The notes under the pieces were generated by a model. That model saw nothing but the letters and a program-made list of their open reading frames with translations, made no database searches and was not told the origin of the DNA. Both the position numbers and the translations under genes were made by a program. DNA of 64,000 bases from contig JANSYA010000001.1 in assembly GCA_024742665.1 (NCBI GenBank), positions 570,425-634,424 on the forward strand, written 5' to 3'. Shown in pieces: positions 13,305-48,340 of this stretch (its first letter is position 1; each line of letters starts with the position of its first letter). Origin of the DNA: a bacterium (lineage in GTDB: Bacteria; Spirochaetota; Leptospiria; Leptospirales; Leptonemataceae).

Positions 13305-13577
13305 ATGCTACCACGGATTTGCAATACAGGCTTTCCTTCAACAACGAAAGGTCTCGAAATTTCCTCCATAGATATTTAGTGTGGCGGAAACGATACAGTC
13401 CGAAATAAAAGACCTTCCGGGAATTCGTCGACCGATCGGCCTGAATTCATACAGCGATGAAATCCTGTCACGGTCGGCCGACTCAGATCTCAAAATAGGT
13501 AGTTCCTGAAGCGCCTCTTTGGTTCCTTGCATACAGGGCATACAGGAAGCGCTATCGCGACCGCCCCCATCGCCATC

Positions 13578-14738: not shown

Positions 14739-14791
14739 ACGATACGAGGCCGCGGCCCTGAGGATGGACCGCGCTGCCGTTCACGGATACA

Positions 14792-15406: not shown

Positions 15407-15468
15407 AGCGCTGAGTTTCTATTCGCAATCGTAAATCGCTGAATAATAATCGCCAAATATCAAACATC

Positions 15469-15720
15469 ATGGATCGCAAAGAAATAGAACAGGCCGTGGC
15501 CGACGTGCTGCGAACGCACTGCAACGTTACAAAAGAGATTCGCGCCGAATCGCGCCTGGCGGAAGATCTCGGCCTGGATTCGGTTGGTCTGCTGACTATG
15601 GCCGTCGAAGTTGAGAATCATTTCCAGACGGTGCTGGGCGAAGAGCCGGAGCGCCCGCCGCGTACAGTCCATGCGGTCGTCGACCTGATCGAGCAGCGCC
15701 TAACGGAACGTAAGCTTTAA
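15469..15720 (+). CDS. Acyl carrier protein
   Basis: 83 aa; LAEDLGLDSVGLLTMAVEVENHF contains the DSx phosphopantetheine attachment Ser in a four-helix ACP-like context. Confidence 0.8.
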   Translation: MDRKEIEQAVADVLRTHCNVTKEIRAESRLAEDLGLDSVGLLTMAVEVENHFQTVLGEEPERPPRTVHAVVDLIEQRLTERKL

Positions 15721-15729
15721 TTTAAGCAA

Positions 15730-17517
15730 ATGGACGACCAGAAGAAAGCCACTCTCGACGAAATCGCAGACGGCGTGCAAACATTGCCGCAAGCGCTGCA
15801 GGCCGCCGGCTCCGAGGGCGATTGCGGAGTGCATTTTTTTTCGAGAAGCGGCACTGTGGAAAGCCACACGTACTCGGAACTCTATCGCGACTCGCGCAGT
15901 CTGGCGTCGGTGCTGATCGCGGACTATCATCTGCGCCCCGGCGATTCGGTCGCGCTGATCATGTCCACTTCGTACGATCTTGTGCGCGCGCTCTTCGCGG
16001 TGTTGATGGCGCGTGCGACCCCGACCTGTCTGCCGACGCCGCGCCTTGGCCGAATGGCGGACTATCAAGGGGCGACCGCTGCGATGCTTCAGGCCGCCGG
16101 TGCGAAGCTGGTCTTAACCGAAGCGAACTCCGTTAAGAATTTGACGAACATCGTCGCCGCGGTTTCGCCTGCGCCGGCCCTTGCGGCGGTTTCTGAAATT
16201 GTAGCGCCGGACGCTCCGGAAGCTGTGGCGGCTTCGGCGAGCGAAGACGAGGTGGCTCTCGCGGACGAGCTGGCTCTCGAAGACGAGCTGGCGCTCGAAG
16301 ACGAGCTGGCGCTAATTCAATTCTCGAGCGGCACGACCGTTGCGCCGAAACCCGTCGCCTTGACCCACAAAAATATTCTGAGCAATACGCGCTCGATTCT
16401 CGCGAGCTTTCCCGGGGACATTCGCGAGCAGAGTGGTTGCTCCTGGCTGCCTTTGCATCACGACATGGGATTGATCGGCGGACTCTTCGCGGCGGTCGTC
16501 GCCCGGGGCGACATGACTTTCTTGCGACCGGAAGATTTTATCGCGCGGCCGGGAGCCTGGCTGCGAGCTCTCAGTCAGAGCAAAGCTTCGATTTGTCCCG
16601 CTCCGAATTTCGCGCTTCAGATTTGCATCGATCGCGTGCGCGACGAAGAGCTTGCGGAACTGGATTTGAGTCACTGGAAGATCGCGCTGATCGGCGCGGA
16701 GACGGTGCGCGAACCGACCCTGCGCAGATTTTATGAACGCTTTGAGTCGACCGGTTTTCGCTACGAAAGTTTTACGCCGGTGTACGGTCTGGCCGAGGCG
16801 ACCCTGGCCGTGACTTTCAGCGACGTGGAGCGTGCGCCCTCTGGCGTGCGCGTCGATCGCGAGAGTCTGGGCCGGGGCGAAATCCATCTGGCGCATGACG
16901 ACGCGCACGGCGTCGACGTCGTGAGCGTGGGGCGGCCCTTAAGCGGCATTGATCTGGAGTTACGCGACGAAAGCGGCCACGTCCTCGGCGAAGATCGCGT
17001 GGGGCGGATTTTCGTGCGGGGCGATTGCGTCATGGCCGGCTACTTTCGCCGCCCGGACGCGACGGCCGCCGCCGTGCAGGACGGCTGGTTGAATACCGGC
17101 GATCTGGGTTTTATTCACCAGGATGAACTCTTTATCTACGGCCGCGAACGCGACATCATCATATTAAACGGCCGCAACCACGATCCCCAGACGATCGAAT
17201 TCGCCATCGACCAGGTGCCGGGTCTTGATCATGACCGAAGCGCGGCCGTGCCGATTGACGATCCCGATCGAGGCACCGAGAGCTTTGTGGTATTAGTCGA
17301 AAAAGAAAAGGGCCAGGCCCCCGGCGGTCTGGACGCGCTCGCCCAAACCGCGCGCGAAGCCATCATTGCGGAAACCGGTTTGCTGCCGGAGCTGGTAGCC
17401 GTGCTGGCCACCGGTCGTCTGCCGCGCACGACCAGCGGTAAAATCAAACGCGGCGCCGCGCGCAGCCAGTTTTTGGCCGGCGAGCTGGAGCTACTGGCGG
17501 AAAGCCGCCGCTCATGA
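15730..17517 (+). CDS. Fatty acyl-AMP ligase / long-chain acyl-CoA synthetase family (adenylate-forming enzyme)
   Basis: 595 aa. AMP-binding motif I FSSGTTVAPKPVALTHKNI; downstream A-domain motifs YGLAEAT and …TGDLGF…, C-terminal Lys. Contains an Asp/Glu/Ala/Leu-rich insert encoded by an 18-bp tandem DNA repeat. Confidence 0.8.
   Translation: MDDQKKATLDEIADGVQTLPQALQAAGSEGDCGVHFFSRSGTVESHTYSELYRDSRSLASVLIADYHLRPGDSVALIMSTSYDLVRALFAVLMARATPTCLPTPRLGRMADYQGATAAMLQAAGAKLVLTEANSVKNLTNIVAAVSPAPALAAVSEIVAPDAPEAVAASASEDEVALADELALEDELALEDELALIQFSSGTTVAPKPVALTHKNILSNTRSILASFPGDIREQSGCSWLPLHHDMGLIGGLFAAVVARGDMTFLRPEDFIARPGAWLRALSQSKASICPAPNFALQICIDRVRDEELAELDLSHWKIALIGAETVREPTLRRFYERFESTGFRYESFTPVYGLAEATLAVTFSDVERAPSGVRVDRESLGRGEIHLAHDDAHGVDVVSVGRPLSGIDLELRDESGHVLGEDRVGRIFVRGDCVMAGYFRRPDATAAAVQDGWLNTGDLGFIHQDELFIYGRERDIIILNGRNHDPQTIEFAIDQVPGLDHDRSAAVPIDDPDRGTESFVVLVEKEKGQAPGGLDALAQTAREAIIAETGLLPELVAVLATGRLPRTTSGKIKRGAARSQFLAGELELLAESRRS
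16244..16315. repeat. In-frame 18-bp tandem repeat (gacgagctggc(t/g)ctcgaa ×~3.5) encoding (D/E)ELAL(E/A) units in the FAAL gene
   Basis: Units at 16265-16282, 16283-16300 and a partial unit 16301-16315, plus a related degenerate unit 16244-16264. Protein reads ALADELALEDELALEDELALIQ. Confidence 0.8.
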
Positions 17518-18839
17518 GCGCGGCCCGTGAATACCAGGCTGTGATTGTCGGCGGCGGACCGGCCGGGCTTGCCGCGGGGATCGTGCTGGCTCGCAGCGGA
17601 ATTTCGACGCTGCTCTTAGAAAGGCGGACATTGCCCTACGCGAAAGTTTGCGGCGAAGGTCTGATGCCTGTGGGACTGCGGGCTCTGGAAAGTCTGGGGG
17701 TGGATCTTTCGCAATCGCCGAACGAAGTCGGCCTGCCCTTTCGGGGCATTCGATATCGCGACTGCGGAACCGGTCGCGCGGCGGAGGCGGATTTCGCCGA
17801 AGGTCCGGGGCGCGGTGTGCCTCGCAGAATTCTCGCGGCGCGTTTGCTCGCCGCCGCAAAACAGCATGAGCTGCTCGAAATTCGCGACGGCGTTTTGTGC
17901 GAAGCTTTGCGGCGCACAGCGGACGGCGCCTGGGAAATTCGAGCCGGCGAAAGCGTCTTTCGCGCGTCGCTTTTGATCGGCGCGGACGGCATTCATAGCT
18001 TCGCGCGCCGGGCCGCAAGGCTTGATCGAGATAGTGCGCGCAATGATCCGCGGCGCTGGGGCGCGCGCTGGCACTTTCCGATTGCGCCCTGGACCGACGG
18101 CTTCGTTGAAGTGCGTCTTCTGGCGCAGACGCCCGGAGTGGAATGTTATATTACGCCGGTCGGCGAACATGAAACCGGCGTGGCCTTTTTGTGGGACCGC
18201 CAGAGTTTTCGACCGGCCGGCGGCGATACTCTGCTTGCGTCTTTGCTGGCGATCTTTCCCGAAGTTGCCGCGCGAGTGCGGGATCTCACGCCGCTGAGCG
18301 ACGGCGGGGCGATCGGTCCGCTGCTGCATCGCACGCGGGCGGTGAGCGGGTCGGGCGTCGCTTTGATCGGCGATGCCGCGGGCTATCTGGACGCCGCGAC
18401 CGGCGAAGGCCTGAGTCTGGCCTTCGAGGCGGCGCTCGCTCTGGAGAACACGGTTGTGCCGGCGCTCGGTGCAGCGGCACGATCGAATGCTTCGAATGTG
18501 GCGAGTGGGGCGAATGAATCGGAGGCAGCGTCAAGCGCGGCTGCGGCTATCGGTGCGATGGCAACGGACGCTCGCGCCTGCAGACGACGCGAGCTGGATC
18601 GGGCCCTGCGGGCGTACTCCCGGGAGCACCGGCGCATTACCGCGAATTATTATCTGACGACGCGGCTGGTTTTGTGGCTCGGTCGCCGGCCGCGCTGGAT
18701 GCGTCGGGTTATCGCGGGATTGGGAGCGAGCCCGGCTTTCTTTCAGCGAGTGCTGTCGGTGAACATGGGCACGCGCGGCGTCTTTGCAGTAAGCCCTGGC
18801 GCCCTCTTAAGATTTCTTAAGGGATTAAGGGCGCATTAA
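17514..18839 (+). CDS. FAD-dependent oxidoreductase (geranylgeranyl-reductase / flavin monooxygenase family, SrsC-like)
   Basis: N-terminal Rossmann dinucleotide motif VIVGGGPAGLAAGIVLARSGISTLLLER. GD-type FAD motif LIGDAAGYLDAATGEGL. Start codon overlaps the FAAL stop (ATGA). Ala/Ser-rich low-complexity insert near the C-terminus. Confidence 0.75.
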   Translation: MSAAREYQAVIVGGGPAGLAAGIVLARSGISTLLLERRTLPYAKVCGEGLMPVGLRALESLGVDLSQSPNEVGLPFRGIRYRDCGTGRAAEADFAEGPGRGVPRRILAARLLAAAKQHELLEIRDGVLCEALRRTADGAWEIRAGESVFRASLLIGADGIHSFARRAARLDRDSARNDPRRWGARWHFPIAPWTDGFVEVRLLAQTPGVECYITPVGEHETGVAFLWDRQSFRPAGGDTLLASLLAIFPEVAARVRDLTPLSDGGAIGPLLHRTRAVSGSGVALIGDAAGYLDAATGEGLSLAFEAALALENTVVPALGAAARSNASNVASGANESEAASSAAAAIGAMATDARACRRRELDRALRAYSREHRRITANYYLTTRLVLWLGRRPRWMRRVIAGLGASPAFFQRVLSVNMGTRGVFAVSPGALLRFLKGLRAH

Positions 18840-22302: not shown

Positions 22303-24906
22303 ATGCACTCGATCAATAATAGAAATTATCGGCCGCAGCCGCCTTCGCCTTCCGCGGCGGAGCGGCGGACTCTACCGCTCTGGCGGCGCCTGCATATTCA
22401 GTGGCGCGCCTGGTTTTCCAGCGTTGATCCGCGATACGAATCCGTGTATCTGGAGTGCATGCAAATCATTCGCGACGAGCCGCAGCTGCAATTGCAGTCG
22501 ATCTTTTTTGGAATCTACGATGAGCTGGAAAAGACCGGCGATGAAGAAGCGCTGCGCCAGTTCGCCGAGAGTGGACTGGAAGACGAATCCGGTCGGCGCT
22601 ATCGTTATTTTCACGCCGCCGTCGCCGTAAAAAACTTCTGGGAAGAATGGGGGGCCATGCGCCTTTCGGGCCGGCAGCATCTGGCCGACATTCGCGGCGA
22701 TCGTCCCGGCTCGATGGCTTACGATTATTTCTTTCGCGCGGGCCGCGACGGTTCCAGCAGCCCGTATCAGATCCAGGATCGCGCGGCGATGGCGGGCTAT
22801 GTTGTCAAAAGCATGCAGCTGGACGATTCAGCGTCCACGCGGGGCTGGGTGCGTCGTCTGGCGCTCCTCTTGTGCGGCAACAAACATCAGCGCCTGGCGC
22901 GCATGCTGCTATGGGTCAATCAGGCGCGAATTTTTCACACCGTCGACGTGCGCGATTCGGACCCGCGCGAAGAGCTCGAAGCCGACGCGCCGGTCCAGTC
23001 GAAGCGCATCGGTTTGATTATGTTTGTTTCGAAGCGGCGCGAGCTGCCGCCGGAGCTGATCGAGGCTGCGGCCTTTCGACTGCGCTGCACATTTTATGAT
23101 TCGCATTTGATTCGCTCAAGAGCGAAGCGGGCTCTGAAGATTCGCGATGAGATGTTTTTGAGTCTGGTCAGCACTATGCCGATCGGTCAAATCGTTCACG
23201 ATTCGCAGCAGGTCCTGTTCGCCAATCCAGCGGCGCTCAAGCTGCTGGGCGCGACGCGGATGGACGAAGTCGCGCGTCGGCCGCTGATGGAACTCGTCGA
23301 TCCGGAGTATCGCGAAAAAGTCTGGGAGCGCGTGCGACTGCTGCGAAACTCTCCGACCGGTACGAGTGTCGACTTGATGGACGAACGATTGACTCGTATC
23401 GACGGCACGCCGATCGACGTCGAGGTCATGGGGGTGCGCGTCGATTATTTCGGCACGGACGCCATTCAGATTATCTTTCGTGACATCAGCGATCGCAAGC
23501 GCATGGAGAACGAGCGCGAACGCCATCGCCTCTACGATTCTCTGACGGGCTTGCCGAACCGCTCGCTCTTTCTGGACCGCCTCGACCAGGCGATCTTGCG
23601 CGCGCAGACCGGGACGCCCGGCGCGGCGAATGCGGGCGCCGCCCGGGAGGAGGAGGATATCGACAGTCCCGCTTTTGGCGGCGAAGCGCCGGCGATTACC
23701 GGACAGGCGTACTCGGGACCGCTGATCGGCGTGCTCTATATAGACATCGATAATTTTCGACAGGTCAACGATCTCTTTCAGTTTCAGGCCGGCGATGAGT
23801 TGCTTTGCGAAATTACAGCGCGAATGGAGCAGTTCGTGCCGTCGGAGTTTACTTTCTCGCGGCTGACCGGCGACAAGTTCTGCGTTTTTCTGCCGCATAT
23901 CGAAGGAACGGAGCAGGCGGTCTTCTTCGCGGAAGGCATGCAGGATCTCTTTCGATTGAAACCCTTCGAAGTTCGCGGCGAGCAAATCCCGCTGACCTTC
24001 AGCGCGGGCATTTCATTTTATCCGATCGACGGCAGCACCGCTTCCGAGCTGCTCAGTCAGTGCGAGGTGGCTCTGGCTCGCGCGAAGCGCAACAAGAATC
24101 AGCTGCAGTTGTATAACCGGGCTATGAACGTGCGCACCGCGGCCCTTTTCGAATTGGAAAAGGATTTGCTGCGGGCGATGTCGGCCAACGAATTTCTGGT
24201 GTACTTTCAGCCTCAGGTCGATTCGCGGCTGGGGATCGTTCGCGGCGTGGAAGCTCTGATCCGCTGGAACCATCCCGAGCGGGGCATTGTCTCTCCGGGG
24301 GAGTTCATTGTAATCGCGGAAGAGCGCGGGCTGATTCTGGAAATCGGCGAGTGGATGCTCGAAGAATCTCTGGCGCAAATCCGGCGCTGCCATCTTGACG
24401 GCGCGCCCGATCTGGAACTGTCGGTGAATGTCACGCCGCGGCAGCTGGAACATCCGGAATTCGTGAATATGGTTCGGAGCCGCATTCGACGCACGGATGT
24501 AGATCCGGAGCTGTTGAAATTTGAAATCGTCGAGCGGGGCATTGTCGAAGAAAACGAGCGAGTGCGTCGCGCTATGAACGAGCTGGCCGGCATTGGCATT
24601 CGCTTTCACGTCGACGATTTCGGAACCGGCGGCGCGGCGATTACCTATCTGCGTAATTTCCCGATCGATACGATTAAGGTCGACAAGTCTTTCGTGCAGG
24701 ATCTCGAAAGACACGAAGGCCTGGTGCGCGGTCTGGTGGCCTTCGCGGAAAACCTGGGTTTACAAACAATCGTGGAAGGAGTCGAGACGCGCGAGCAGCT
24801 CGACTTTTTCGAAGCCCTTGGATGTCGTTATTACCAGGGTTTCTATTTCGCGCGACCGATGCCTTCGAGCGAGTGCAGCGACTTCATTAGAAACTTCAAG
24901 ATCTGA
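22303..24906 (+). CDS. Multidomain c-di-GMP signalling protein: unknown N-terminal domain, PAS, degenerate GGDEF, EAL phosphodiesterase
   Basis: PAS-like segment …IVHDSQQVLFANPAALKLLGAT…IIFRDISDRK. GGDEF fold with RLTGDKFCVF in place of RYGGEEF, i.e. a degenerate cyclase site. EAL domain with EALIRWNHPERG, DDFGTG and Q.G.YF. The N-terminal ~280 aa are unassigned. Confidence 0.85.
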   Translation: MHSINNRNYRPQPPSPSAAERRTLPLWRRLHIQWRAWFSSVDPRYESVYLECMQIIRDEPQLQLQSIFFGIYDELEKTGDEEALRQFAESGLEDESGRRYRYFHAAVAVKNFWEEWGAMRLSGRQHLADIRGDRPGSMAYDYFFRAGRDGSSSPYQIQDRAAMAGYVVKSMQLDDSASTRGWVRRLALLLCGNKHQRLARMLLWVNQARIFHTVDVRDSDPREELEADAPVQSKRIGLIMFVSKRRELPPELIEAAAFRLRCTFYDSHLIRSRAKRALKIRDEMFLSLVSTMPIGQIVHDSQQVLFANPAALKLLGATRMDEVARRPLMELVDPEYREKVWERVRLLRNSPTGTSVDLMDERLTRIDGTPIDVEVMGVRVDYFGTDAIQIIFRDISDRKRMENERERHRLYDSLTGLPNRSLFLDRLDQAILRAQTGTPGAANAGAAREEEDIDSPAFGGEAPAITGQAYSGPLIGVLYIDIDNFRQVNDLFQFQAGDELLCEITARMEQFVPSEFTFSRLTGDKFCVFLPHIEGTEQAVFFAEGMQDLFRLKPFEVRGEQIPLTFSAGISFYPIDGSTASELLSQCEVALARAKRNKNQLQLYNRAMNVRTAALFELEKDLLRAMSANEFLVYFQPQVDSRLGIVRGVEALIRWNHPERGIVSPGEFIVIAEERGLILEIGEWMLEESLAQIRRCHLDGAPDLELSVNVTPRQLEHPEFVNMVRSRIRRTDVDPELLKFEIVERGIVEENERVRRAMNELAGIGIRFHVDDFGTGGAAITYLRNFPIDTIKVDKSFVQDLERHEGLVRGLVAFAENLGLQTIVEGVETREQLDFFEALGCRYYQGFYFARPMPSSECSDFIRNFKI

Positions 24907-24980
24907 AGGGCTGAGGGACTCAAGTTCTGGGCGACCAGCGGCCTGGCCTTCACTTTATACGATCGCGGGGGAAATTCAGC

Positions 24981-26366
24981 TCAGCCGGGCAGGCGCCAGT
25001 GCCAGGCTTTCGGTCGCACGAAGCTGCGAATTCCTTCTTCCCCGAGAGTTACGCCGATGCCCGAATCGCCGCGGCCGGACCAGGGCAGGCGCGGGCTGAC
25101 GCGATCGCAGCAGTTCCAGTAGACGGTGCCGGAGTTGATCTTCGTTAAGATGCCGTGTGCGCGATCGGGATCTTTCGTGAAGACTCCCGCGGTCAGGCCG
25201 TAGGGCGTATCGTTCATCATGCGAATCGCTTCGCGATCGTCGCTCACGCGCTGGATGCCGATCACCGGGCCGAAGCTTTCTTCGCTCATGATTTTCATGT
25301 CGTGGCTGACGTCGGTGACGACCGTTGGTTCGAAATAATAGCCGCGGCGGTTCATGGTGTTGCCGCCGATTAAAATCTTGCCGCCCTTCGTGCGTGCGTC
25401 TTCCACCTGCTGCTTTAAGACCATCAGTTGTTCTTTGCGCGACAGCGGTCCGATGTAGGTGTTCTCGTCGAGAGGATCGCCGACCTGAAAACCGCGCACG
25501 GTTTCTACGAAGGCTTCAACGAATTGATCGTAGATTTTTTCATGCACGTACACGCGTTCGACCGCGCAGCAGCTCTGGCCGGTATTATAAAAAGCGCCGT
25601 CGGCCACCGCCGCCGCGGTCGTTGCCGGATCGACGTCGTCGCAAATATAGGCCGGGTCTTTGCCGCCGAGCTCCAGCTGCAATCGCGTAAATCTACGTGA
25701 GACGATGTCCGCGATTGCGCGCCCGGTGCGATAAGAACCGGTAAAAAACACGCCTCCGACCGGCCATTTCAACATTTCCTGTCCCGCGAAGGCGCCGCCG
25801 ATGATCGGAATAAAAATTTCATCGGGCAGGTCCGACTGGTACATCACTTCGGCGATCGACATTCCGGTTAAACATGCAAACTCTGAAGGTTTGTACAGTA
25901 CCGCGTTACCGGTCAGGATCGCCGGTACGAATACGTTCGATCCCACGAAATACGGATAATTCCAGGCGGAAATATTCGCGACGACTCCCAGGGGTTCGTA
26001 GGTGATGTGTTCGCCGGTGCGTCCGTCTTCAGCGGCCGCCGGCTCGACGGCCACGTCGTCCGCCAGCACGTCGCGGAAGTGATCGATGAAAAACTGCACG
26101 CGGGCCGTGGTTGCGAGAATTTCCGAGCGCGCCTGGCTGATCGGTTTGCCGGTCTCTTCGCTCTGGGTGCGGGCCAGCGTGTCGGCTTCGGCCGTCAGGG
26201 CGTCTTTGAAATTCGTCATGATCCGCGCTCGATCGTCGAGGGGGCGTTCCATCCATTCCAACTGCGCCGACATCGCGCGGTTGTACTTCTCGATAATGGA
26301 ACGGCTATCGTCGGTTTCGAGTTCCGTGATCAGCTCTTCAGTGGCGGGATTGACGACTTTCAGCAT
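24981..26366 (-). CDS. NAD(P)-dependent aldehyde dehydrogenase
   Basis: From the Met of MLKVVNPATEE. ALDH motifs LELGGKDPAYI and FYNTGQSCCAVERVYVHE (catalytic Cys). The ORF track extends the start into the upstream repeat via a GTG. Confidence 0.85.
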   Translation of the reverse strand: MLKVVNPATEELITELETDDSRSIIEKYNRAMSAQLEWMERPLDDRARIMTNFKDALTAEADTLARTQSEETGKPISQARSEILATTARVQFFIDHFRDVLADDVAVEPAAAEDGRTGEHITYEPLGVVANISAWNYPYFVGSNVFVPAILTGNAVLYKPSEFACLTGMSIAEVMYQSDLPDEIFIPIIGGAFAGQEMLKWPVGGVFFTGSYRTGRAIADIVSRRFTRLQLELGGKDPAYICDDVDPATTAAAVADGAFYNTGQSCCAVERVYVHEKIYDQFVEAFVETVRGFQVGDPLDENTYIGPLSRKEQLMVLKQQVEDARTKGGKILIGGNTMNRRGYYFEPTVVTDVSHDMKIMSEESFGPVIGIQRVSDDREAIRMMNDTPYGLTAGVFTKDPDRAHGILTKINSGTVYWNCCDRVSPRLPWSGRGDSGIGVTLGEEGIRSFVRPKAWHWRLPG

Positions 26367-26393
26367 ACGAATTCCAACTATTCTCAGGCGCGC

Positions 26394-26492
26394 GGCGCGC
26401 CACCTGATCAGCATCACTATTTAAGAGGCGAGTCACAGCGGTCCTGGGACCGCACGGCGCGCCGCCTGATCAGCATCACTATTTAAGAGGCG
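26394..26492. repeat. Two 37-bp direct repeats (one mismatch) flanking a 25-bp spacer containing a palindrome (gcggtcctgggaccgc)
   Basis: Copy 1 is 26394-26430, copy 2 is 26456-26492 (ggcgcgcc(a/g)cctgatcagcatcactatttaagaggcg). Copy 2 encodes the last residues and TAG stop of the upstream amidotransferase gene. Copy 1 sits just 5' of the ALDH start. Confidence 0.7.
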
Positions 26493-27375
26493 CGCCCTGA
26501 GCCGCGATCATTTTTTGCCGTTTCTGGCGACGCGCATCGGTTTCCGACAAGAACTCAATCATAAGCGCGTCAGCCGCGAGCAGGCCGTCGCCTGCCACCT
26601 GGAATTCCGGATGCCATTGCACGCCGACGACATAGGGCGTTTCGCCTGCGAAGTCCGCGTTCTTAAAGCCCGCGAGCTGAGCGACTTCCGACGGTCGGGT
26701 CAGGCGCACGGCTTCGATAATATCGTCTTCGGTGGACAGCGCTTCGACCGCGAGTCCAGCCCCGACAGACTTGATCGCCTGGTGGTGAATGGAAATGATT
26801 CGGCCGCCGCTGCGGGCTTCGCCGTAGTACTTACTGTAGAGCCTGGCAATGCCCGAGTCGTTTTCAAAAACGATGTCGTGTTGCAGCTGATCGTACTGTT
26901 CCCAGTCGCGATGAACTAAGGCTCCCGGAATTTGTTCGCCAATATCCTGGTAGAGGCTGCCGCCGAGGGCCACGTTGATGATCTGGTGTCCGCGACAGAT
27001 GCCGAGGACCGGTTTGCCGGCGCGCATGCAGGCTTCGATCAATTCGATTTCGTAGCGGTCGCGATAGAGGTCGCCGTTCCACTCCGGACGCAGGGCGCTT
27101 TCGCCGTAGCTTTCGGGACATACGTCGCTGCCGCCCTGCAGTAGCAGCCCGTCGATTTGTTCTAAGAGCAGTTCGGTGGATATGCCGCCGTGAGCCGCCG
27201 GGATCAGAATGGGCAGGGCGCCGTTCGCCATCAGCCATTGGAGCATCGACTCTTCGGCGTAGACCAGGCGTTTGCCTTTGAAAATCGGCCGGGTCGGATC
27301 GTGGTGAAAAAAGCAGGCCGAGACGCCGATGCGCAGCGGCTTTGCTCTGTCGTGGTTGAATTCAGTCGTCGACAT
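26479..27375 (-). CDS. Class I glutamine amidotransferase-like gamma-glutamyl hydrolase (PuuD / peptidase C26 family)
   Basis: 298 aa. Catalytic Cys context GICRGHQIINVALGG and His context VGVQWHPEF. C-terminal extension relative to PuuD. Confidence 0.75.
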   Translation of the reverse strand: MSTTEFNHDRAKPLRIGVSACFFHHDPTRPIFKGKRLVYAEESMLQWLMANGALPILIPAAHGGISTELLLEQIDGLLLQGGSDVCPESYGESALRPEWNGDLYRDRYEIELIEACMRAGKPVLGICRGHQIINVALGGSLYQDIGEQIPGALVHRDWEQYDQLQHDIVFENDSGIARLYSKYYGEARSGGRIISIHHQAIKSVGAGLAVEALSTEDDIIEAVRLTRPSEVAQLAGFKNADFAGETPYVVGVQWHPEFQVAGDGLLAADALMIEFLSETDARRQKRQKMIAAQGAPLK

Positions 27376-27393
27376 CTTGGGTTGGGTTTGAAA

Positions 27394-28581
27394 TTACGAT
27401 GCCAGCGCGGCTTCGTACATCTTACGAAAATCTTCGCTCGTAACTTCACGCGGGTTCAGGCTATGGCAGACGTCGAGCTCGGCGTACTTCACAAGCTCGT
27501 CCAGGTCTTCGTTCTTGACGCCTTCGCTTTTTAGTCCGGTCGGCATGCCGACGTCCGCTTTGAGCTGCACGAGCCAGTCGACGAAACCGGCCGGGCTCTC
27601 TTTCGGAGCGCGGACGACTCGCGCCATCTCGGTAAAAATCTTTTCTATTTCGGGACCGGCCTGCGTATTGAATTCCATCGCGTACGAAATCATAATGCCG
27701 TTCGCCAGGCCGTGATGCAGATCGTTTACGGTCGAAAGCGAGTGCGCGAGGCTGTGAGTCACGCCCAGACCCTTTTGAAAAGCTACTGAACCCATCATCG
27801 ATGCGTTCAGCAGCAGGCCGCGGGCGTGGATATGCTCCGGAGTCGGGCCGGTTTTCTCGTTGGCGAAGCGCACGCAGTCGCGCAGGCTCGCTGCCGCCAG
27901 ACGCATGCCTTCCATGGCCAGGCCGTCGCAAAAAGGCTGAAATCCCTTCGCCAGCCGCGCTTCAACGTTGTGAGTCAGCGCGTCCATGCCCGTCGATGCG
28001 GTGACCGCTGCGGGTAAACCCAGAGTCAATTCAGGATCGGCGAAGACCGCGACGGGTAGAATCGCGGGCGAAAAAATGATGCGCTTAAAATGCGTGTCGT
28101 CTTCGGCGATTACTGTGCTGCGGCCGACTTCGCTGCCCGTGCCGGCGGTCGTTGGCAGAGCGACCATCACCGGGATTTTTTCGGCCAGGATCGGGCGCGC
28201 GCCTTCGCGTTCGTCTTCGTAGTCGAAGAGCGTACCTTCGTGATCGACCATCACCGCGACGGCTTTCGCCACATCGATGGCCGCGCCGCCGCCGAGAGCG
28301 ATGATGCTGTCTGCGCCGTGCTCGCGATAGCTTTCGACGCCGGCGGTCACGTCGCTTTCGCAGGGATTGCCGGGGCGTCCGCCGTGCAGGCCGCACATCA
28401 GGCCGTCTTTATTCAGGTCCGCCTGGAATTCTTTGCAGAAGGGCAGGGCGGCGATGGTCGCGTCGGTGATGATGATCGGGCGGTCGACGCCGCGGGCTTT
28501 CATTTCGCGCGCGACCAGGTGCCGTGCCCCCGCTCCGAAAAAGATTTGAGTCGGAAAACTATAGCGATGGATTTCTTTCAT
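27394..28581 (-). CDS. Iron-containing (group III) alcohol dehydrogenase
   Basis: 395 aa. N-terminal GAG…RPIIITD. Fe-ADH signatures GGGAAIDVAKAVAV and the metal-binding His cluster (…THSLAHSLS…HHGLANG…). Confidence 0.85.
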   Translation of the reverse strand: MKEIHRYSFPTQIFFGAGARHLVAREMKARGVDRPIIITDATIAALPFCKEFQADLNKDGLMCGLHGGRPGNPCESDVTAGVESYREHGADSIIALGGGAAIDVAKAVAVMVDHEGTLFDYEDEREGARPILAEKIPVMVALPTTAGTGSEVGRSTVIAEDDTHFKRIIFSPAILPVAVFADPELTLGLPAAVTASTGMDALTHNVEARLAKGFQPFCDGLAMEGMRLAAASLRDCVRFANEKTGPTPEHIHARGLLLNASMMGSVAFQKGLGVTHSLAHSLSTVNDLHHGLANGIMISYAMEFNTQAGPEIEKIFTEMARVVRAPKESPAGFVDWLVQLKADVGMPTGLKSEGVKNEDLDELVKYAELDVCHSLNPREVTSEDFRKMYEAALAS

Positions 28582-28667
28582 AGTAAGTGTGGGGTCGCAG
28601 ACGATTTACGCTGCTGAGCTTTTATACTGCAAAGATCTGAATCTATCCGAACCTTCGGGTGCGCCTC

Positions 28668-30041
28668 TTAAATGATCTCGAAGTAGCGCTTGAGCTCCCA
28701 GTCGGTGACGACCTGACCGGCCTGCTTCCATTCCCAGAATCGGGTGGTCGTGAAGTGTTCGACGAATTCATCGCCGAAGAGCTCTTTCGCGATCGCGGAA
28801 TCCTGCATGAGCTGCGCCGAGTCTCGCAGATTGTTCGCCAGGCGCGGCGCGTCGGTGACTTCGTAGGCGTTGCCGGAAACCGGATCCGCTTTGAGCTCCA
28901 GTTTGTTTTCGATGCCGTACAGGCCCGCAGCCAGATACGCCGCGACCGCCAGATAGGGATTGATGTCGGCGCCGCCGATGCGGCCTTCGACGCGCGTGCT
29001 CTTTTGCGATCCGCGAATTACCCGTAACGACGCCGTGCGATTGTCGACGCCCCAGGTGACGGTGGTCGGGGCCCAGAAGCCTTCGACCAAACGTTTGTAG
29101 CTGTTTACGTTCGGCGCGAGCATCGGTAGAATCTGCGGCAGGCAGTGAATCAATCCGGCCATATACTGGCGAAAGACTTCGCTCATATTATGCGGATCGT
29201 TCGCGTCGTAGAAGGCGCTCGCGGTACCGTCGGCGTTCCACAGGCTCTGGTGTATATGGCCGCTCGATCCGGGCAGCTCGGTATTCCAGCGGGCCATAAA
29301 CGTGGGAATCACGCCGAAGCGGTAGCCGATTTCTTTCGCGGCGGTCTTAAACAACACTCCCCGATCCGCGGCTTCTAAGGCGTCGGCGACGTAAATGCCG
29401 GCTTCATAAACTCCCGGTCCGGTTTCGGTGTGCAGTCCTTCCAGGGGCACGCCGAATTCGCTCATCTCGTCCATCAGGGTTTTGAAATAGGGCTGACCAT
29501 AAGAACTGCGCAGGAGCGAATAGCCGAACATACCCGGCGTGAGCGACTGCAGATTGCGAAAGCCTTTATCGTTCAGGCTCTGGGGCGTTTCCTGAAAATT
29601 AAAAAACTCCAGCTCGATTCCGCACATCGCGCTGAAACCCATGTCGCGGCCTTTTTTGATCACGCGTTTGAGCAGCTGTCGCGGACAGACCGCCAGCCCC
29701 TGGCCGTCGGCGTCGCCGAAGTCGCCGAGAAAAAGCGGCGTGTGATCGTCCCAGGGAATGGTGCGATAGGTGCCTTCGTCGATGCGCGCTTCGGAATCGG
29801 GATAGCCCGTGTGCCAGCCGGTGAATTTGACGTGGTCGTAACATACGTCGGCCGAATCCCAGCCGAAGACCACGTTGCAAAATCCGAAGCCGCCGTCGAG
29901 GGCCGACAGGAATTTATCAACGTGGATGTACTTGCCGCGCATGATGCCGTCAATGTCGGTGATCGCGACTTTGATTTTCTGTGTGCCGGATTTTTTGATT
30001 TCGGTAATGAGTTGTTCGCGCGTGAGTTTGTGTGTGGCCAT
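28668..30041 (-). CDS. Glutamine synthetase family protein (gamma-glutamyl-amine ligase, PuuA-like)
   Basis: 457 aa. GS catalytic-domain motifs (…FGYSLLRSS…, HIHQSLW, NPYLAVAAYLAAGL). First gene of a same-strand operon with Fe-ADH, GATase-hydrolase and ALDH. Confidence 0.8.
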   Translation of the reverse strand: MATHKLTREQLITEIKKSGTQKIKVAITDIDGIMRGKYIHVDKFLSALDGGFGFCNVVFGWDSADVCYDHVKFTGWHTGYPDSEARIDEGTYRTIPWDDHTPLFLGDFGDADGQGLAVCPRQLLKRVIKKGRDMGFSAMCGIELEFFNFQETPQSLNDKGFRNLQSLTPGMFGYSLLRSSYGQPYFKTLMDEMSEFGVPLEGLHTETGPGVYEAGIYVADALEAADRGVLFKTAAKEIGYRFGVIPTFMARWNTELPGSSGHIHQSLWNADGTASAFYDANDPHNMSEVFRQYMAGLIHCLPQILPMLAPNVNSYKRLVEGFWAPTTVTWGVDNRTASLRVIRGSQKSTRVEGRIGGADINPYLAVAAYLAAGLYGIENKLELKADPVSGNAYEVTDAPRLANNLRDSAQLMQDSAIAKELFGDEFVEHFTTTRFWEWKQAGQVVTDWELKRYFEII

Positions 30042-30239
30042 GTGCTTCGCCTGTTAGAAAAATCTGATACTGGAAATTGAAAGAGCGGGATATGAAAATC
30101 GTCTGAATTAAGAGTCAGTGCGGCTCCAATGTGATTCACAGATTTTGGAAGCCGGACCGCGCGATGATTTAAGCCGCGCCAGACCCTGAGTCCCGAATTC
30201 CGGAGGATCTGACCATCTTTTTTTCGGATTCGGCCCGCT

Positions 30240-31091
30240 CTATTTCTGAACGATTCTGTCGTGGCTCCGAGCGAAGTCGTAAAATACGTCTCGGATTTTG
30301 TCGGGCTCGTCGGTCATCAGTCCGTCCGCGCCGCGCTCGAGCAGGCGACGGGCTTCGTCGGCGTCGTTCACCACCCAGTAATCCAATCGCAGCCTCGCGG
30401 CGTGAGCGCGTCGGATCAGACGGGGGCCGTCAAAGCGCACGCGCTGTCCGATCCACCGCCGCAGTCCGCGTCCGCCTTCGCCATGTAAGGGCAGCTGCAG
30501 CGCGTGGCCGGCGATGCTGCGGCGACGCAATAGAAATTCGGGATAGAAACGCAGACGCATGAGGTCCTGTACGGACACGCCGGTTTCGCCCGGATAGCCG
30601 AGGCGCCGCACGTGTCGGATGATCTCGGCGTCGAAGCTGTTTAAGACAACGCGGCCGACCGCGCCACAATCCTGAATCAGGTTGAGCACCTCGCGCACGA
30701 CGTCGATTTCGTGCTGCTTGATGTCGACGTTGATCACCGTTCTCGGAAAGGCGTTCAGCACCGTGCGAAAGAGCGGCGCCTGGTAGGCGCGATTCAGTTT
30801 GCCGAATAAAAATTTTTTGCCGACATTCCAGCTTTGAATTTCGGCGTAGCTGCATTCCGCTACGAGTTTATCGACGCCGGCCATGCGAAAGCCCGTCGCG
30901 TCGTGGTGTACGACGATCTGCCCGTCCGCCGTGCGATGCACATCCATCTCCAGGTGAGTGGCGCCGTCCTTGAGCGCTCGTTCGAAGGCCGGCATCGTAT
31001 TTTCCGGATGAATGCGATTCGCGCCGCGATGGGCATAGAGTCGAAGATCCGGCAGTTTCGTTTCGGAGTGTGGAGCGGGTGCGGGGTTCAT
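30240..31091 (-). CDS. Glycerophosphodiester phosphodiesterase (GDPD/UgpQ family)
   Basis: From the Met of MNPAPAP. GDPD motifs YAHRGANRIHPENTMPAFERA and LEMDVHRTADGQIVVHHD. The ORF-track start at 31271 adds ~60 non-conserved residues. Confidence 0.8.
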   Translation of the reverse strand: MNPAPAPHSETKLPDLRLYAHRGANRIHPENTMPAFERALKDGATHLEMDVHRTADGQIVVHHDATGFRMAGVDKLVAECSYAEIQSWNVGKKFLFGKLNRAYQAPLFRTVLNAFPRTVINVDIKQHEIDVVREVLNLIQDCGAVGRVVLNSFDAEIIRHVRRLGYPGETGVSVQDLMRLRFYPEFLLRRRSIAGHALQLPLHGEGGRGLRRWIGQRVRFDGPRLIRRAHAARLRLDYWVVNDADEARRLLERGADGLMTDEPDKIRDVFYDFARSHDRIVQK

Positions 31092-31343
31092 GCGCGCGTC
31101 ATCAGTTAGAATCATGCAGGACGTTAGAGTCACCGATCGGAAGCAATTTTTTCGGATCCCGCTCGCATCGCCATGAAAAAAACGACGGTTGGTGAAGATT
31201 TGTCGTTTTGCTTTCGTCGAATATCTGGTTTGGCCTTCCAGACCCCCCGCGACTGAATGAAGGCGTTGCACAGGATTGTCCGGGAATCCCGCGCGCGTAT
31301 TCGAATCAGCGTGTATATTTTCGATTTTTTGAGGGGTTGATTT

Positions 31344-32657
31344 ATGAGTACCACAGACAACGAGTATCGCGTGCAGAATTATGTACGGCGACGCAAAAAA
31401 CTGAGCGGTTTGATTTTCGAAACGGCGCTACCAAACGAATATCTTGTTCGCATGGGCACCGGAAAACCGCAGCCGATCCTGGGCGGCCGCAAGCTGCGCT
31501 TCTTCGGAATGCGGCGGTATCTACGAATTCCGGCATCGGTACAGACTTTAGAATTCGCGACCGACAACGCGAATATTCATTTCCAGGGATTGGGAATCGA
31601 AGGTTTCGCCGCCTGGCAGATCAATGCACAGAATCCGGTCCAGGCGCTCACGACGCTCGACCTCTTCGACGAAAACGATCCGATGGGTCGCACCAATCAC
31701 GAACTGCGCACGATTTGCGTGGAAGCAGTGCGCCACGTGATCGCCAATATGACCATCGAAGATGCGCATCGTAAGAAAGAGGAGATTGCGCGTGAGTTAA
31801 AGAAACAATTGCAGCAGGTTGAAAAAAACTGGGGCATCGTCTTTCACCAGGTCGGCATTCGCAGCGTGAAAGTGATGTCCACTTCCGTCTTTCACGACTT
31901 GCAGGCGAAGTATCGCAACGAGCTGCGGCTGGAGTCCGAACGCACGCAGGTGCAAACCGATCGCGAAATCGAGCAGGAAAAGAATCAGGTGCGCGAAGTC
32001 AGCGAGATGGAACGCCTGGCCACGGACCATAAGCTGGAAAGCGCCAGCCAGGAACAGTTGGCTAAGCGGCGGGAAGTGGCGATGAACGACGAGCAACGCT
32101 TTCAGATGACTGAGCTGCAGAATCATTCGGAGCTGGAAAAAAATCGCCTGCAAGAGGAGCAGAATCGCAAACTTCAGGAGCAGGTCAACAGTAGCGCTCT
32201 GCATCGCGAAGAGCTGGAAGGGGCCCGCGAAACGGCGGAACTCGAGCACGAAGTGGAACAGCGCCGGTTGGAACTCGAAGTCCAACGCAAGCGCGAACTG
32301 GAGCTGCAGCTGAAAGAACTGGAAGTGCGTAGCAAGGAAATGGAGGAGCGGATCATGGAGATCGACCTCAAGGCCGAACGCGTTCAGCGCGAAATCAGCC
32401 AGCACTACAGTCCGGAGTATCTACGCGCTCGCGCCATTGAAACTCTGCCGAAAGTCGCCGCGGAGATGAAAGTCGATCGCTATACCGTTTGGGATTCGGG
32501 CGGAGCCGGCGGAGCAAGTGTCTCCCCGCTGAGCCGTACGATTCAGGAAGTCGTTTCGATTCTGGGCGATAGCGAATTCGCGGGACTGTTTCAAACTGCG
32601 CTGGGTGCGAAACTCAAAGGCGGCGGCGAAAGCCCGGAGCCGTCCGGCAAAGATTGA
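31344..32657 (+). CDS. Flotillin-like SPFH/band-7 domain protein with long coiled-coil
   Basis: 437 aa. N-terminal SPFH-like fold region followed by a highly charged heptad region rich in E/R/K/Q/L (…ELEHEVEQRRLELEVQRKRELELQLKELEVRSKEMEER…), as in flotillins/YqiK. Confidence 0.55.
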   Translation: MSTTDNEYRVQNYVRRRKKLSGLIFETALPNEYLVRMGTGKPQPILGGRKLRFFGMRRYLRIPASVQTLEFATDNANIHFQGLGIEGFAAWQINAQNPVQALTTLDLFDENDPMGRTNHELRTICVEAVRHVIANMTIEDAHRKKEEIARELKKQLQQVEKNWGIVFHQVGIRSVKVMSTSVFHDLQAKYRNELRLESERTQVQTDREIEQEKNQVREVSEMERLATDHKLESASQEQLAKRREVAMNDEQRFQMTELQNHSELEKNRLQEEQNRKLQEQVNSSALHREELEGARETAELEHEVEQRRLELEVQRKRELELQLKELEVRSKEMEERIMEIDLKAERVQREISQHYSPEYLRARAIETLPKVAAEMKVDRYTVWDSGGAGGASVSPLSRTIQEVVSILGDSEFAGLFQTALGAKLKGGGESPEPSGKD

Positions 32658-32777
32658 AATCGCGATCTTGATTTGCATCGCGAGCGAATGGCCGCGTCGT
32701 CCTTTTGGGGCGGCGCGGTTTTTTTAGCCACGGATTCCACGAATGCCACGCCATCGGAGCAATCCGTGGCCGGGCCC

Positions 32778-33545
32778 TCAGTCTGAGCTTACCCGCATCG
32801 CCAGGGCGTAAAAGCGCGCAATTGGATAGATCGAAATCGCGCTGAAGATATGCCACAGAGCGTGACCCTGCCAGAGATGATCTTCGGGGTCGCACCAGTT
32901 GCGGCTGAAGTCGAGATAAGAGCAGTACGCGGCGAGTCCCATCAGGGCGAGCCCCGCCGACCACCAGAGATAGCGGCCGTCGCCGTTGGTTCCATAGAAT
33001 GCGTGATTGCGTCGCAATAAAAATACGACGGCTTCGCTGCCGAGAATCGCGACGATATTCCAGGTGACGATCGCCTGGATCGGGATATCCAGAGCGGGGA
33101 CATAAAACAACAGCCAGAAATTCAGCGCGATCAGGACGCCGTATAAAATCGTATGGCCGCGCACATTCGAAACGACGCCCAGTCGCCGCAGATTCCAGGC
33201 GATCAGCAGCGATGTATAAAAGAACATGCCGTAGAAATCGAAGAGCTGGCTGATATAATTATTCGTGGCGTGATAGATCAGCGAAAGCGCGCCCATCATA
33301 AAGACGACGATGCCGAGTTCGCGGAGCTGATAGCCCGGGCGGGAACCGCCGGAGCGATAGCGCCAGGCGACAATCACCGCCACAATCAAATAGGCGACAT
33401 TGCTGAAAGTATTCGCCGGTTCTTCGACGTGTCCGCAAAGGCGTTCTTCGCACCACTTAACGTTGGGCGGTCCGTAGGTTTCGCGGTACTCATCGTACGG
33501 ACATTGTTCGACGGGGAATTCACCAGACATGGACATGATCAGAGA
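32778..33545 (-). CDS. Alkaline ceramidase (ACER/CREST superfamily) homologue, 7-TM hydrolase
   Basis: Start at MSMSGEFP. N-terminal VKWCEERLCGHVEEPANTFSNVAYL matches the ACER DWCE…NT.SN motif. Multiple TM helices and C-terminal HALWHIFSA His pair. Confidence 0.55.
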   Translation of the reverse strand, partial: SLIMSMSGEFPVEQCPYDEYRETYGPPNVKWCEERLCGHVEEPANTFSNVAYLIVAVIVAWRYRSGGSRPGYQLRELGIVVFMMGALSLIYHATNNYISQLFDFYGMFFYTSLLIAWNLRRLGVVSNVRGHTILYGVLIALNFWLLFYVPALDIPIQAIVTWNIVAILGSEAVVFLLRRNHAFYGTNGDGRYLWWSAGLALMGLAAYCSYLDFSRNWCDPEDHLWQGHALWHIFSAISIYPIARFYALAMRVSSD

Positions 33546-33747
33546 CCATGCGAAGCGGAGCGCAAGTAGAATAATCGTTCCGATGGGACCGGGCGGACAG
33601 AGAAATCGCAATCGCCAGCGGCTGGCTATGCAGGAGCGCCAGCGGACGAAGCGCGCTTTTTCCGCACACAAAAAAGAGGAAGCCTTCCGACTTCCCCTTC
33701 TCGAAGATCAGCCGACGCAAGCATCGGCCATTCTTTTAATCTTAATC

Positions 33748-35019
33748 TTATTCCTGGCCGATTACGAAGGTCATGTTCGTCGTGGCGCTGCCGCCGATGT
33801 TGAGCATGATGCCGTTCTTCGAACCTTCCACCTGGTAGCCGCCGGCCTGGCCGGTAACCTGCTTGTGGATGTCGAGGGCCATGCGAACGCCGGAAGCGCC
33901 CACGGGGTGACCCGCGCCGATCAGACCGCCGCTCGGATTGATCGGCTTCTTACCGGTCCGGGCGATGGTGCCGTCTTCAATCGCCTGATGTTCTTCGCCC
34001 GGCTTCGTAATGCCGAAGGCGGAGATGGCGGCGTATTCGCTGGAAGTAAAGCAGTCGTGAGTTTCGATGACGTCCATCTGGTCGATGTCGAGACCGGCGC
34101 GATCGTACGCATCTTTTACAGCCTGGCGCGTCCAGGGCAGGATATAGTCGTTGCCTTTGGACTCAGCGACTTTGTTTACGAACTGCATCGGAGCGACGCG
34201 ATGGCCCCAGCCTTTGAGTACGGACATGCTTTCCAGTTTCTTGCCGGACTTTTTGGCGAACTCTTTCGCGTACTCGGGGCTCGCGATGACCATCAGCGCC
34301 GCGCCGTCGGTAACCTGCGAACAGTCGGTGATCGCCAGACGACCGCCGACGGCCATGTTGTAATCGCCGCCGCGGGTATTGGCGTGCTCTTTGTTCATGA
34401 ACCAGGAGCGCGTTTGCGCCCGCGGGTTGGTCTTCGCGTTGTCGTAATTAATCCGCGAGATTTCCGCGAAGCCTTCCATGATACGGTCTTCTTTGACGTG
34501 GCTGTTGCGCTCGACGATTACGTCGGCCAGCTTGCCGAATAATTTCGGAAACGGAAACTCAATGCCCTTCGCTTCTTTTTCGTAGTAGGCGGCCGTGCCC
34601 AGGAAATCGCCGCCGACCGCGGAGTTGACGGTCTTCATCACTTCGAGACCGACGATGATGCAGACGTCGTAGTCTCCAGCGCGGATTTTCGTACCGGCCG
34701 CGTCAAGTGCCACCGAACCAGAGGCGCAGGCCGCTTCGTAGCGTCCGCCCGGCACGCCGTAAAACGCGGGATGCACTTCGGTCAGGAAGGCGCCCAGGTG
34801 ACCCTGGTTCGCGTACTGCTCGGCGTCGAAATTGCCGACGAAAACGCCCACGCGGTTTTCTTTGTTCAAACGTTTGATTTCATCGTAGTCCAGGCCGACT
34901 GCCGCCAGGCCGTCTTCGACGATTTCGCGAAACATGGATACGAAGGTCTTGCCTTCTTTGGTCCAGTTGCGCTGGAAGTCGGTCTGAGCCCCGCCCAGAA
35001 TGTAAGGTTTGATACTCAT
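33748..35019 (-). CDS. Thiolase-like protein (SCP2-type / nonspecific lipid-transfer thiolase)
   Basis: 423 aa. Thiolase fold with active-site Cys context (…[16 protein letters not shown]…) and a C-terminal [15 protein letters not shown]-type Gly-rich loop. Confidence 0.7.

Positions 35020-48221: not shown

Positions 48222-48340
<119 letters not shown>

Follow-up and report, generated by a model that had tools for sequence, protein, structure and literature searches.

Ethanolamine is the head group of membrane lipids. A published route for its catabolism proceeds through gamma-glutamylated intermediates, in which gamma-glutamylethanolamide is converted to gamma-glutamylacetaldehyde and further to gamma-glutamylglycine, which yields glycine and glutamate (PMC6529630, PMC10132767, PMC9397018). 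Here, we analyzed a four-gene cassette in a 64-kb stretch of a Leptospirales genome (assembly GCA_024742665.1, contig JANSYA010000001.1, positions 570,425 to 634,424; hereafter the window). It encodes a glutamine synthetase (GS)-like gamma-glutamyl ligase, an iron-containing alcohol dehydrogenase (Fe-ADH), a Peptidase_C26-type hydrolase and an aldehyde dehydrogenase (ALDH), and is probably an operon for the B12-independent catabolism of ethanolamine via gamma-glutamylation.

The pathway has been described in Chromohalobacter salexigens and Agrobacterium (Vetting et al., 2015, as cited in PMC10132767), and in Phaeobacter sp. MED193 the proteins of the cluster were found in 2023 to be induced by phosphatidylethanolamine, the Phaeobacter-type cluster having the layout RpiR-GGAH-EtoVWX-ETAGA-GAADDH-GETADH (PMC10132767). 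In Streptomyces coelicolor, GlnA4 (SCO1613), encoded within the cluster SCO1610-1615, has been demonstrated to act as a gamma-glutamylethanolamide synthetase (Krysenko et al., 2019, PMC6529630). The Chromohalobacter locus encoding a relative of the protein in PDB entry 5dm3 comprises genes for RpiR, FGase, a TRAP transporter (DctQMP), a GS-like ligase, ALDH and Fe-ADH, and the same layout, including the Fe-ADH, is present on a plasmid of Paracoccus sp. TOH. A Streptomyces plasmid locus contains a permease, a GS-like ligase, a C26 hydrolase, an ALDH and a short-chain dehydrogenase (SDR). As the prototype clusters carry an Fe-ADH, its occurrence after a gamma-glutamyl ligase is a known design, and a preliminary description of the window's locus, which regarded the Fe-ADH as a novel replacement of an amine oxidase, overstated this feature: the Chromohalobacter and Paracoccus clusters already use the enzyme.

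Active site and phylogeny of the ligase

The window's ligase retains all metal, ATP and glutamate ligands of GS (E129, E131, E212, E220, H269, E357, R321, R339, R344 and R359). The residues of the ammonium site are replaced across its clade, with the flap residue Glu327 exchanged for Trp, Tyr179 for Phe and Asn264 for Pro; the position of Glu327 is occupied by Phe in the PDB entries 5dm3 and 11zs. These two entries are the top structural matches of the ligase (270 and 300 bits, respectively), compared with at most 180 bits for true GS. Their sequences are 55% identical to each other and share 34% (5dm3) and 37% (11zs) identity with the ligase. The best solved relative, 11zs, is a recent entry titled just 'Glutamine synthetase, catalytic domain', and the nearest database relative of 5dm3 is a 95%-identical Chromohalobacter protein. 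Identity is approximately 37% to the Streptomyces-type ligase, approximately 38% to IpuC, 30% to PuuA and 28% to E. coli GlnA.

The ligase does not reach the cut-off of any of the NCBIfam models GlnA, GlnIII and GGputSyn, with 222.5 bits against the type I GS model TIGR00653 (cut-off 429.15) and 187 bits against the gamma-glutamylputrescine synthetase (PuuA) model NF045547 (cut-off 650). A Tyr aligned with the adenylylation site Tyr397 is present, yet in the context GNAYE instead of NLYDLPPEE, and a Tyr at this position is also found in the Chromohalobacter-type ligase. The protein thus differs from type I GS (GlnA) in its TIGR00653 score, in the residues at positions 327, 179 and 264 and in the context of the adenylylation loop, and from gamma-glutamylputrescine synthetase in its NF045547 score and in not clustering with PuuA. 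Its GS fold, complete ligand set and altered ammonium site are features of the gamma-glutamylethanolamide synthetase type. A transfer of pocket residues from the Chromohalobacter-type ligase was considered and ruled out, as the two clades do not share these residues.

In a distance-based neighbor-joining tree of 96 sequences with 100 bootstraps, the window clade was monophyletic (97% bootstrap) and joined a proteobacterial group with 46-48% identity to the window's ligase (100% bootstrap). Both together were placed sister to the Chromohalobacter-type and Streptomyces-type ligases (99% for the latter group; these figures exclude the joining node), the Streptomyces sequence being assigned as GlnA4-type by gene context alone. 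IpuC, PuuA and GlnA fell outside this larger clade. The tree position, the low identity to GlnA, the TIGR00653 score and the Trp in place of Glu327 speak against a bona fide GlnA, the outcome that would have refuted the preliminary description. The ligase is predicted to work like the characterized gamma-glutamylethanolamide synthetases without being their orthologue. Some of the sister-group ligases are encoded on plasmids, namely of Rhodobacteraceae M382, Rhizobium leguminosarum and Pseudorhizobium flavum (loci L010, L099 and L100; 46-48% identity).

Distribution of the cassette and linkage to ethanolamine permeases

A scan of species-representative genomes yielded at least 596 confirmed relatives of the ligase. 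Homologues with 60-90% identity occur in Leptospirales, Bdellovibrionota, Myxococcota and other metagenome-assembled genomes (MAGs), and the best 80 of the at least 596 relatives, with 54-63% identity, span Bacteroidota (Chitinophaga, Pedobacter and Mucilaginibacter), Burkholderiales, Bdellovibrionota, Myxococcota, Planctomycetota, Verrucomicrobiota and Turneriella. Partner genes were surveyed by tblastn and HMM profile searches in 61 GTDB loci with at least 4 kb of downstream sequence. The most constant partner is the Fe-ADH, which was present in 42 of the 61 loci and each time immediately downstream of the ligase, followed by ALDH (36/61) and the C26 hydrolase (30/61). All three partners were present in 29 loci, 28 of which (28/61 overall) have the order of the window. 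The cassette recurs in this order amid unrelated flanks in Bdellovibrionota, Myxococcota, Bacteroidota, Burkholderiales, Planctomycetota and others, an arrangement far beyond chance, and as the flanking genes are unrelated between phyla, it appears to be a self-contained module.

Two deviations from this pattern were observed. A relative of the window's locus whose ligase is 82% identical (L001) contains an additional 213-aa open reading frame (ORF) between the Fe-ADH and C26 genes (12620-13261), which has no Pfam or NCBIfam match and is absent from the window. Ten Mucilaginibacter loci (L021, L024, L029, L035-L038, L040, L051 and L058) encode a ligase orthologue (57-59% identity) without Fe-ADH, C26 or ALDH partners; its neighbors are a 336-aa upstream protein resembling type II glutamine synthetase by eye, an unannotated 345-aa protein and a HAD-IIA hydrolase. 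The Mucilaginibacter orthologue may have a different role.

Among 72 loci with sufficient upstream sequence, 28 encode a same-strand APC permease directly upstream of the ligase, including a MAG of Turneriella, which also belongs to the Leptospirales. All 27 of the permeases that were extracted match TIGR00908 ('ethanolamine permease') at E <= 1e-100, and the three that were scored individually reached 406, 427 and 450 bits, above the curated cut-off of 381.75. Cultured bacteria with the complete Eat-ligase-FeADH-C26-ALDH locus include Chitinophaga niastensis DSM 24859, Pedobacter frigoris RP-3-15 and Parapedobacter pyrenivorans. Because an ethanolamine permease directly precedes so many orthologous cassettes, the comparative evidence supports ethanolamine as the substrate, which was the first of several amino alcohols named as examples in the preliminary description.

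Partner enzymes and proposed pathway

The catalytic residues are intact in all four enzymes. The Asp/His metal ligands of the Fe-ADH align with those of FucO (30.7% identity), and the enzyme shares 36.5% identity with the Fe-ADH of the TRAP-type ethanolamine cluster of Paracoccus. Its top NCBIfam match is 4-hydroxybutyrate dehydrogenase, with 313 bits at a cut-off of 500. The ALDH retains its catalytic Cys (GQSCCAVER) and Glu (LELGGK) and shares 37.7% identity with the ALDH of the Paracoccus cluster and 29% with PuuC; its top models are succinic semialdehyde and aminobutyraldehyde dehydrogenases, with scores below the cut-offs. No useful structure was retrieved from the PDB with the ALDH as query (E <= 1e-80). 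The Cys nucleophile (GICRGHQ) and the His-x-Glu motif (WHPEF) of the hydrolase align with the PuuD triad. With 32% identity to PuuD and 81 bits against the PuuD equivalog model (cut-off 266), the hydrolase is best classified as a Peptidase_C26 family member with a Cys-His-Glu triad and not as a PuuD orthologue; its nearest solved structures are Lin1909, a 'probable glutamine amidotransferase' of P. aeruginosa (7d4r) and PuuD. None of the four cassette proteins reached an NCBIfam equivalog cut-off.

In the proposed pathway, the GS-like ligase would couple ethanolamine to the gamma-carboxyl group of glutamate at the expense of ATP, forming gamma-glutamylethanolamide, whose free alcohol would be oxidized by the Fe-ADH to gamma-glutamyl-aminoacetaldehyde. 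The ALDH would convert this intermediate to gamma-glutamylglycine, from which the C26 hydrolase would release glycine and regenerate glutamate. The predicted net reaction is ethanolamine + ATP + 2 NAD(P)+ -> glycine + ADP + Pi + 2 NAD(P)H. Neither a free aminoaldehyde nor acetaldehyde would be formed, and neither cobalamin nor a microcompartment would be needed. The earlier proposal that an amino alcohol is glutamylated, oxidized twice and deglutamylated is supported by these data, and it equals the published ethanolamine pathway (PMC6529630, PMC10132767, PMC9397018).

Evaluation of the substrate assignment

Several observations weigh against ethanolamine catabolism as the function of the cassette. 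The window's ligase belongs to an uncharacterized clade, outside that of the experimentally characterized gamma-glutamylethanolamide synthetases. The two clades have different residues around the amine site, and together with the low identity (34-37%) this means that substrate specificity is not transferable by homology. The top NCBIfam matches of both dehydrogenases are C4 enzymes (4-hydroxybutyrate and succinic semialdehyde dehydrogenase), all below cut-off. No homologue of the Eat permease is encoded in the 64-kb window, several other carriers of the cassette also lack a permease at the locus, and TIGR00908 owes its own name in large part to genome context. In the proteobacterial sister group gene contexts are mixed, with some ligases located beside a class III aminotransferase and a Pot-type (polyamine-type) ABC transporter and one beside a GMC oxidoreductase and a PuuD-like hydrolase. 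The substrate has evidently shifted within the wider ligase clade, to judge from these contexts, which also indicate that the oxidation step has been swapped modularly in the sister lineage. Furthermore, a scan of 24700-31500 identified no sigma-70-like promoter on the minus strand, a scan that is weakly informative for a Leptospirales-like genome.

An alternative explanation is the same chemistry acting on another amino alcohol or hydroxy-amine, such as 3-aminopropanol (yielding beta-alanine), 4-aminobutanol (yielding gamma-aminobutyric acid, GABA), 1-amino-2-propanol, serinol or alaninol, at least in permease-less lineages like that of the window. The divergent amine pocket of the ligase, the C4 models matched by the Fe-ADH and ALDH, and the resemblance of the hydrolase to PuuD, which acts on gamma-Glu-GABA, would all fit such a substrate, as would the missing permease. 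However, the NCBIfam matches are well under their cut-offs, an ethanolamine permease directly precedes the orthologous cassettes in more than a third of the loci surveyed (28/72), and a GABA or beta-alanine aminotransferase, which would be needed to use the respective products, is not encoded nearby. In addition, the product of the gene upstream of the ligase, a glycerophosphodiester phosphodiesterase (GDPD), would release ethanolamine or serine as the sole amine-bearing products. We consider a different amino alcohol rather unlikely. Polyamine or diamine catabolism of the Puu type, with an unrelated or auxiliary Fe-ADH, could account for the PuuD-like hydrolase and the PuuC-like ALDH, for the 187 bits that the ligase scores against the gamma-glutamylputrescine synthetase model and for the sister-group ligases that adjoin an aminotransferase and a spermidine/putrescine ABC transporter. 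This score is far below the 650-bit cut-off, however, and the ligase shares 30% identity with PuuA. Since the cassette lacks an oxidase or aminotransferase, it offers no way of converting a gamma-glutamyl diamine to an aldehyde; no other partner accompanies the ligase as constantly as the Fe-ADH; and no Pot-type transporter was present in the best 80 of the at least 596 window-clade loci, all of which makes this explanation very unlikely.

The complete catalytic core, the Tyr at the position of Tyr397 and public records, in which these ligases are named 'glutamine synthetase' or 'glutamine synthetase family protein', might suggest that the ligase is a genuine ammonium-assimilating GS with functionally unrelated neighbors. 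The replacement of all three ammonium-site residues throughout the clade, the score of barely half the TIGR00653 cut-off, the recurrence of the same Tyr in the Chromohalobacter-type ligase without the NLYDLPPEE context, and the synteny with Fe-ADH, C26 and ALDH genes that is conserved across phyla render this extremely unlikely. Catabolism of ethanolamine via gamma-glutamylation is thus the probable function of the cassette.

Gene organization and upstream region

The four genes are consecutive ORFs on the minus strand (Table 1), and the ORFs and Pfam domains agree with the order and, exactly, with the coordinates given in the preliminary description. As also noted there, the four-gene block contains no gene for a regulator or transporter. 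The intergenic gaps are 86, 18 and approximately 112 nt long, the last one counted from ATG 26366. The ALDH ORF was called with a GTG start (24981-26417, 478 aa), but an alignment of orthologues and a 461-aa product called in a relative indicate that translation most likely begins at ATG 26366 (MLKVVNP...). No terminator-like hairpin was detected on the minus strand within the intergenic gaps in the scan of 24700-31500, and the four genes are presumably co-transcribed. An Rfam scan of the whole window identified no riboswitch or leader near the operon, its sole match being a 5S rRNA elsewhere. A gene encoding a PAS-GGDEF-EAL protein converges on the cassette from the downstream side.

The spacer between the C26 and ALDH genes contains one copy of a 42-nt direct repeat (26389-26430 and 26451-26492; 95% identical, 62-nt spacing), by which the last C26 codons, the stop codon and the following sequence are copied into the spacer. 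The repeat contains a GGCGCGCC palindrome and looks like a small tandem duplication. It was recovered by a separate repeat search, as Tandem Repeats Finder reported nothing at the C26/ALDH junction.

Table 1. Predicted features of the gamma-glutamylation cassette and its upstream region in the window
Feature	Position	Strand	Domain evidence and predicted role
GS-like ATP-dependent gamma-glutamyl ligase, 457 aa	28668..30041	-	Pfam Gln-synt_C, 325 bits; GS catalytic domain alone; predicted glutamate--ethanolamine ligase (gamma-glutamylethanolamide synthetase-like)
Fe-ADH, 395 aa	27394..28581	-	Pfam Fe-ADH and ADH_Fe_C; predicted gamma-glutamylethanolamide dehydrogenase
Peptidase_C26/class I GATase-type gamma-glutamyl amidohydrolase, 298 aa	26479..27375	-	Pfam Peptidase_C26 (PF07722), 168 bits, and GATase; predicted gamma-glutamylglycine hydrolase
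NAD(P)-dependent ALDH, 461 aa from ATG 26366	24981..26366	-	Pfam Aldedh, 440 bits; predicted gamma-glutamyl-aminoacetaldehyde dehydrogenase
GDPD, 283 aa from ATG 31091	30240..31091	-	Pfam GDPD, 113 bits, domain from residue 21
Conserved non-coding element in the GDPD-ligase spacer (AAAAAAAGATGGTCAGAT ... GGACTCAGGGTC)	30182..30224	-	Invariant blocks in three related loci; candidate promoter/operator

In place of a permease, the GDPD gene is located 198 nt upstream of the ligase on the same strand, and this adjacency is kept in relatives with ligases that are 82% and 90% identical. The catalytic domain leaves no room for a signal peptide, and the enzyme therefore appears to be cytoplasmic. Acting on glycerophosphoethanolamine, a GDPD yields glycerol-3-phosphate and ethanolamine, and ethanolamine and serine are the only amine-bearing products that it can release. 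Hence, the GDPD is probably an accessory enzyme that supplies intracellular ethanolamine from glycerophosphoethanolamine, which would explain a locus without a permease. Two blocks in the spacer between both genes, AAAAAAAGATGGTCAGAT and GGACTCAG(G/T)GTC, are invariant between the window and the loci L001 and L097, whereas the surrounding spacer differs in sequence and length, and these blocks may represent the promoter or operator of the cassette. A sigma-54 promoter within the conserved element, considered by eye, was rejected, as L001 has a GG-to-GC spacing that deviates by one and the window lacks TTGC.

Genomic neighborhood

Genes for an SPFH/Band_7 protein, a ceramidase-family membrane protein (PF05875) and a thiolase (31344-35019) adjoin the GDPD gene and the cassette, and the same set recurs in L001 (5114-8837). 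Together with the GDPD, they may form a lipid-scavenging neighborhood. A 720-aa ORF on the plus strand (45894-48056) can be counted among the lipid head-group genes of the window, since its C-terminal 220 residues are a phosphatidylserine decarboxylase domain and phosphatidylserine decarboxylases make phosphatidylethanolamine; its N-terminal part of approximately 500 residues matches no Pfam family. This setting could be taken further, with the cassette serving nitrogen salvage within an island for the scavenging of lipid head groups (GDPD, ceramidase-like membrane hydrolase, SPFH protein and thiolase) in a lipid-feeding Leptospirales lineage. The ligase clade would then act on an amino alcohol other than free imported ethanolamine, e.g., an intracellularly released amine of head-group or sphingoid origin. 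We regard this as improbable; if true, it would add a new substrate class to the GS-like ligases.

Two further features of the window lie apart from the cassette. A solitary 5S rRNA gene is located at 48223-48339 on the minus strand, with no 16S or 23S rRNA gene nearby. Unlinked rRNA genes are known in Leptospira, and the solitary gene is consistent with them, as well as with the best protein matches, which are affiliated with the Leptospirales. On the plus strand (13527-18839), consecutive genes for a type III polyketide synthase (chalcone/stilbene synthase-like), an AMP-binding enzyme and an FAD-dependent monooxygenase represent a putative small secondary-metabolite or alkylresorcinol-type cluster.

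Implications and comparison with known systems

The underlying pathway and its chemistry have been known since 2015 and are not new. What appears to be new, judged from comparative genomics, is a distinct, very widespread and uncharacterized ligase clade, on which no paper was found in the gamma-glutamylethanolamide literature searched. A P. putida fitness preprint that was considered concerns EutBC and is irrelevant to the gamma-glutamylation pathway. Also apparently new are the hybrid parts list, combining an Fe-ADH as in the proteobacterial prototype with a C26 hydrolase as in the actinobacterial one, and the GDPD-linked, permease-less form in the window's Leptospirales lineage. The label 'glutamine synthetase' in public records hides a likely catabolic role of these ligases. 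If the assignment is true, a cobalamin-independent, microcompartment-free route from ethanolamine to glycine would be common, with at least 596 species-representative genomes carrying the ligase, and the turnover of ethanolamine in the environment would be underestimated by surveys restricted to eutBC. In the GDPD-linked version, the hydrolysis of phospholipid head groups may be coupled directly to nitrogen salvage, comparable to the findings in marine Phaeobacter.

The window's cassette shares the four activities, the Fe-ADH and ALDH families and the predicted chemistry with the Chromohalobacter/Agrobacterium/Phaeobacter system, and the ligases of both belong to one larger clade apart from PuuA and GlnA. 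However, these ligases are only 34-37% identical and form separate clades, and the Chromohalobacter-type hydrolase is an N-formylglutamate amidohydrolase (PF05013) instead of a Peptidase_C26 enzyme. The TRAP transporter and RpiR regulator of that system are both missing from the window, and its gene order is ligase-ALDH-ADH, as opposed to ligase-ADH-hydrolase-ALDH. The GlnA4 cluster of Streptomyces coelicolor likewise combines a GS-like ligase with an ALDH and a GATase/C26-type hydrolase, but there alcohol oxidation is assigned to an SDR instead of an Fe-ADH, and a dedicated regulator, EpuRI, is present. In other Streptomyces a permease adjoins the ligase; no similarity between this permease and Eat was detected at E < 1e-5.

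IpuC, the gamma-glutamylisopropylamide synthetase of the isopropylamine (Ipu) pathway, is also a GS-like ligase acting on a small monoamine, and the Paenarthrobacter cluster similarly includes a GATase, an SDR and an ALDH. The Ipu pathway, however, needs a P450, a ferredoxin and a reductase to hydroxylate the glutamylated amine, none of which is encoded in the window's cassette, and IpuC lies outside the clade of the window's ligase. With the Puu pathway of E. coli (PuuA-D), the cassette shares the logic of protection, oxidation and deprotection, a hydrolase of the PuuD family and an ALDH of the PuuC superfamily. The term 'Puu-like' in the preliminary description is therefore apt as an analogy, but it does not extend to kinship, as the ligase lies outside the PuuA clade at 30% identity to PuuA and an Fe-ADH takes the place of the PuuB-type oxidase. 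An Fe-ADH in the position of PuuB implies that the pathway would start from an alcohol-bearing amine and not from a diamine, and would end in glycine and not in GABA.

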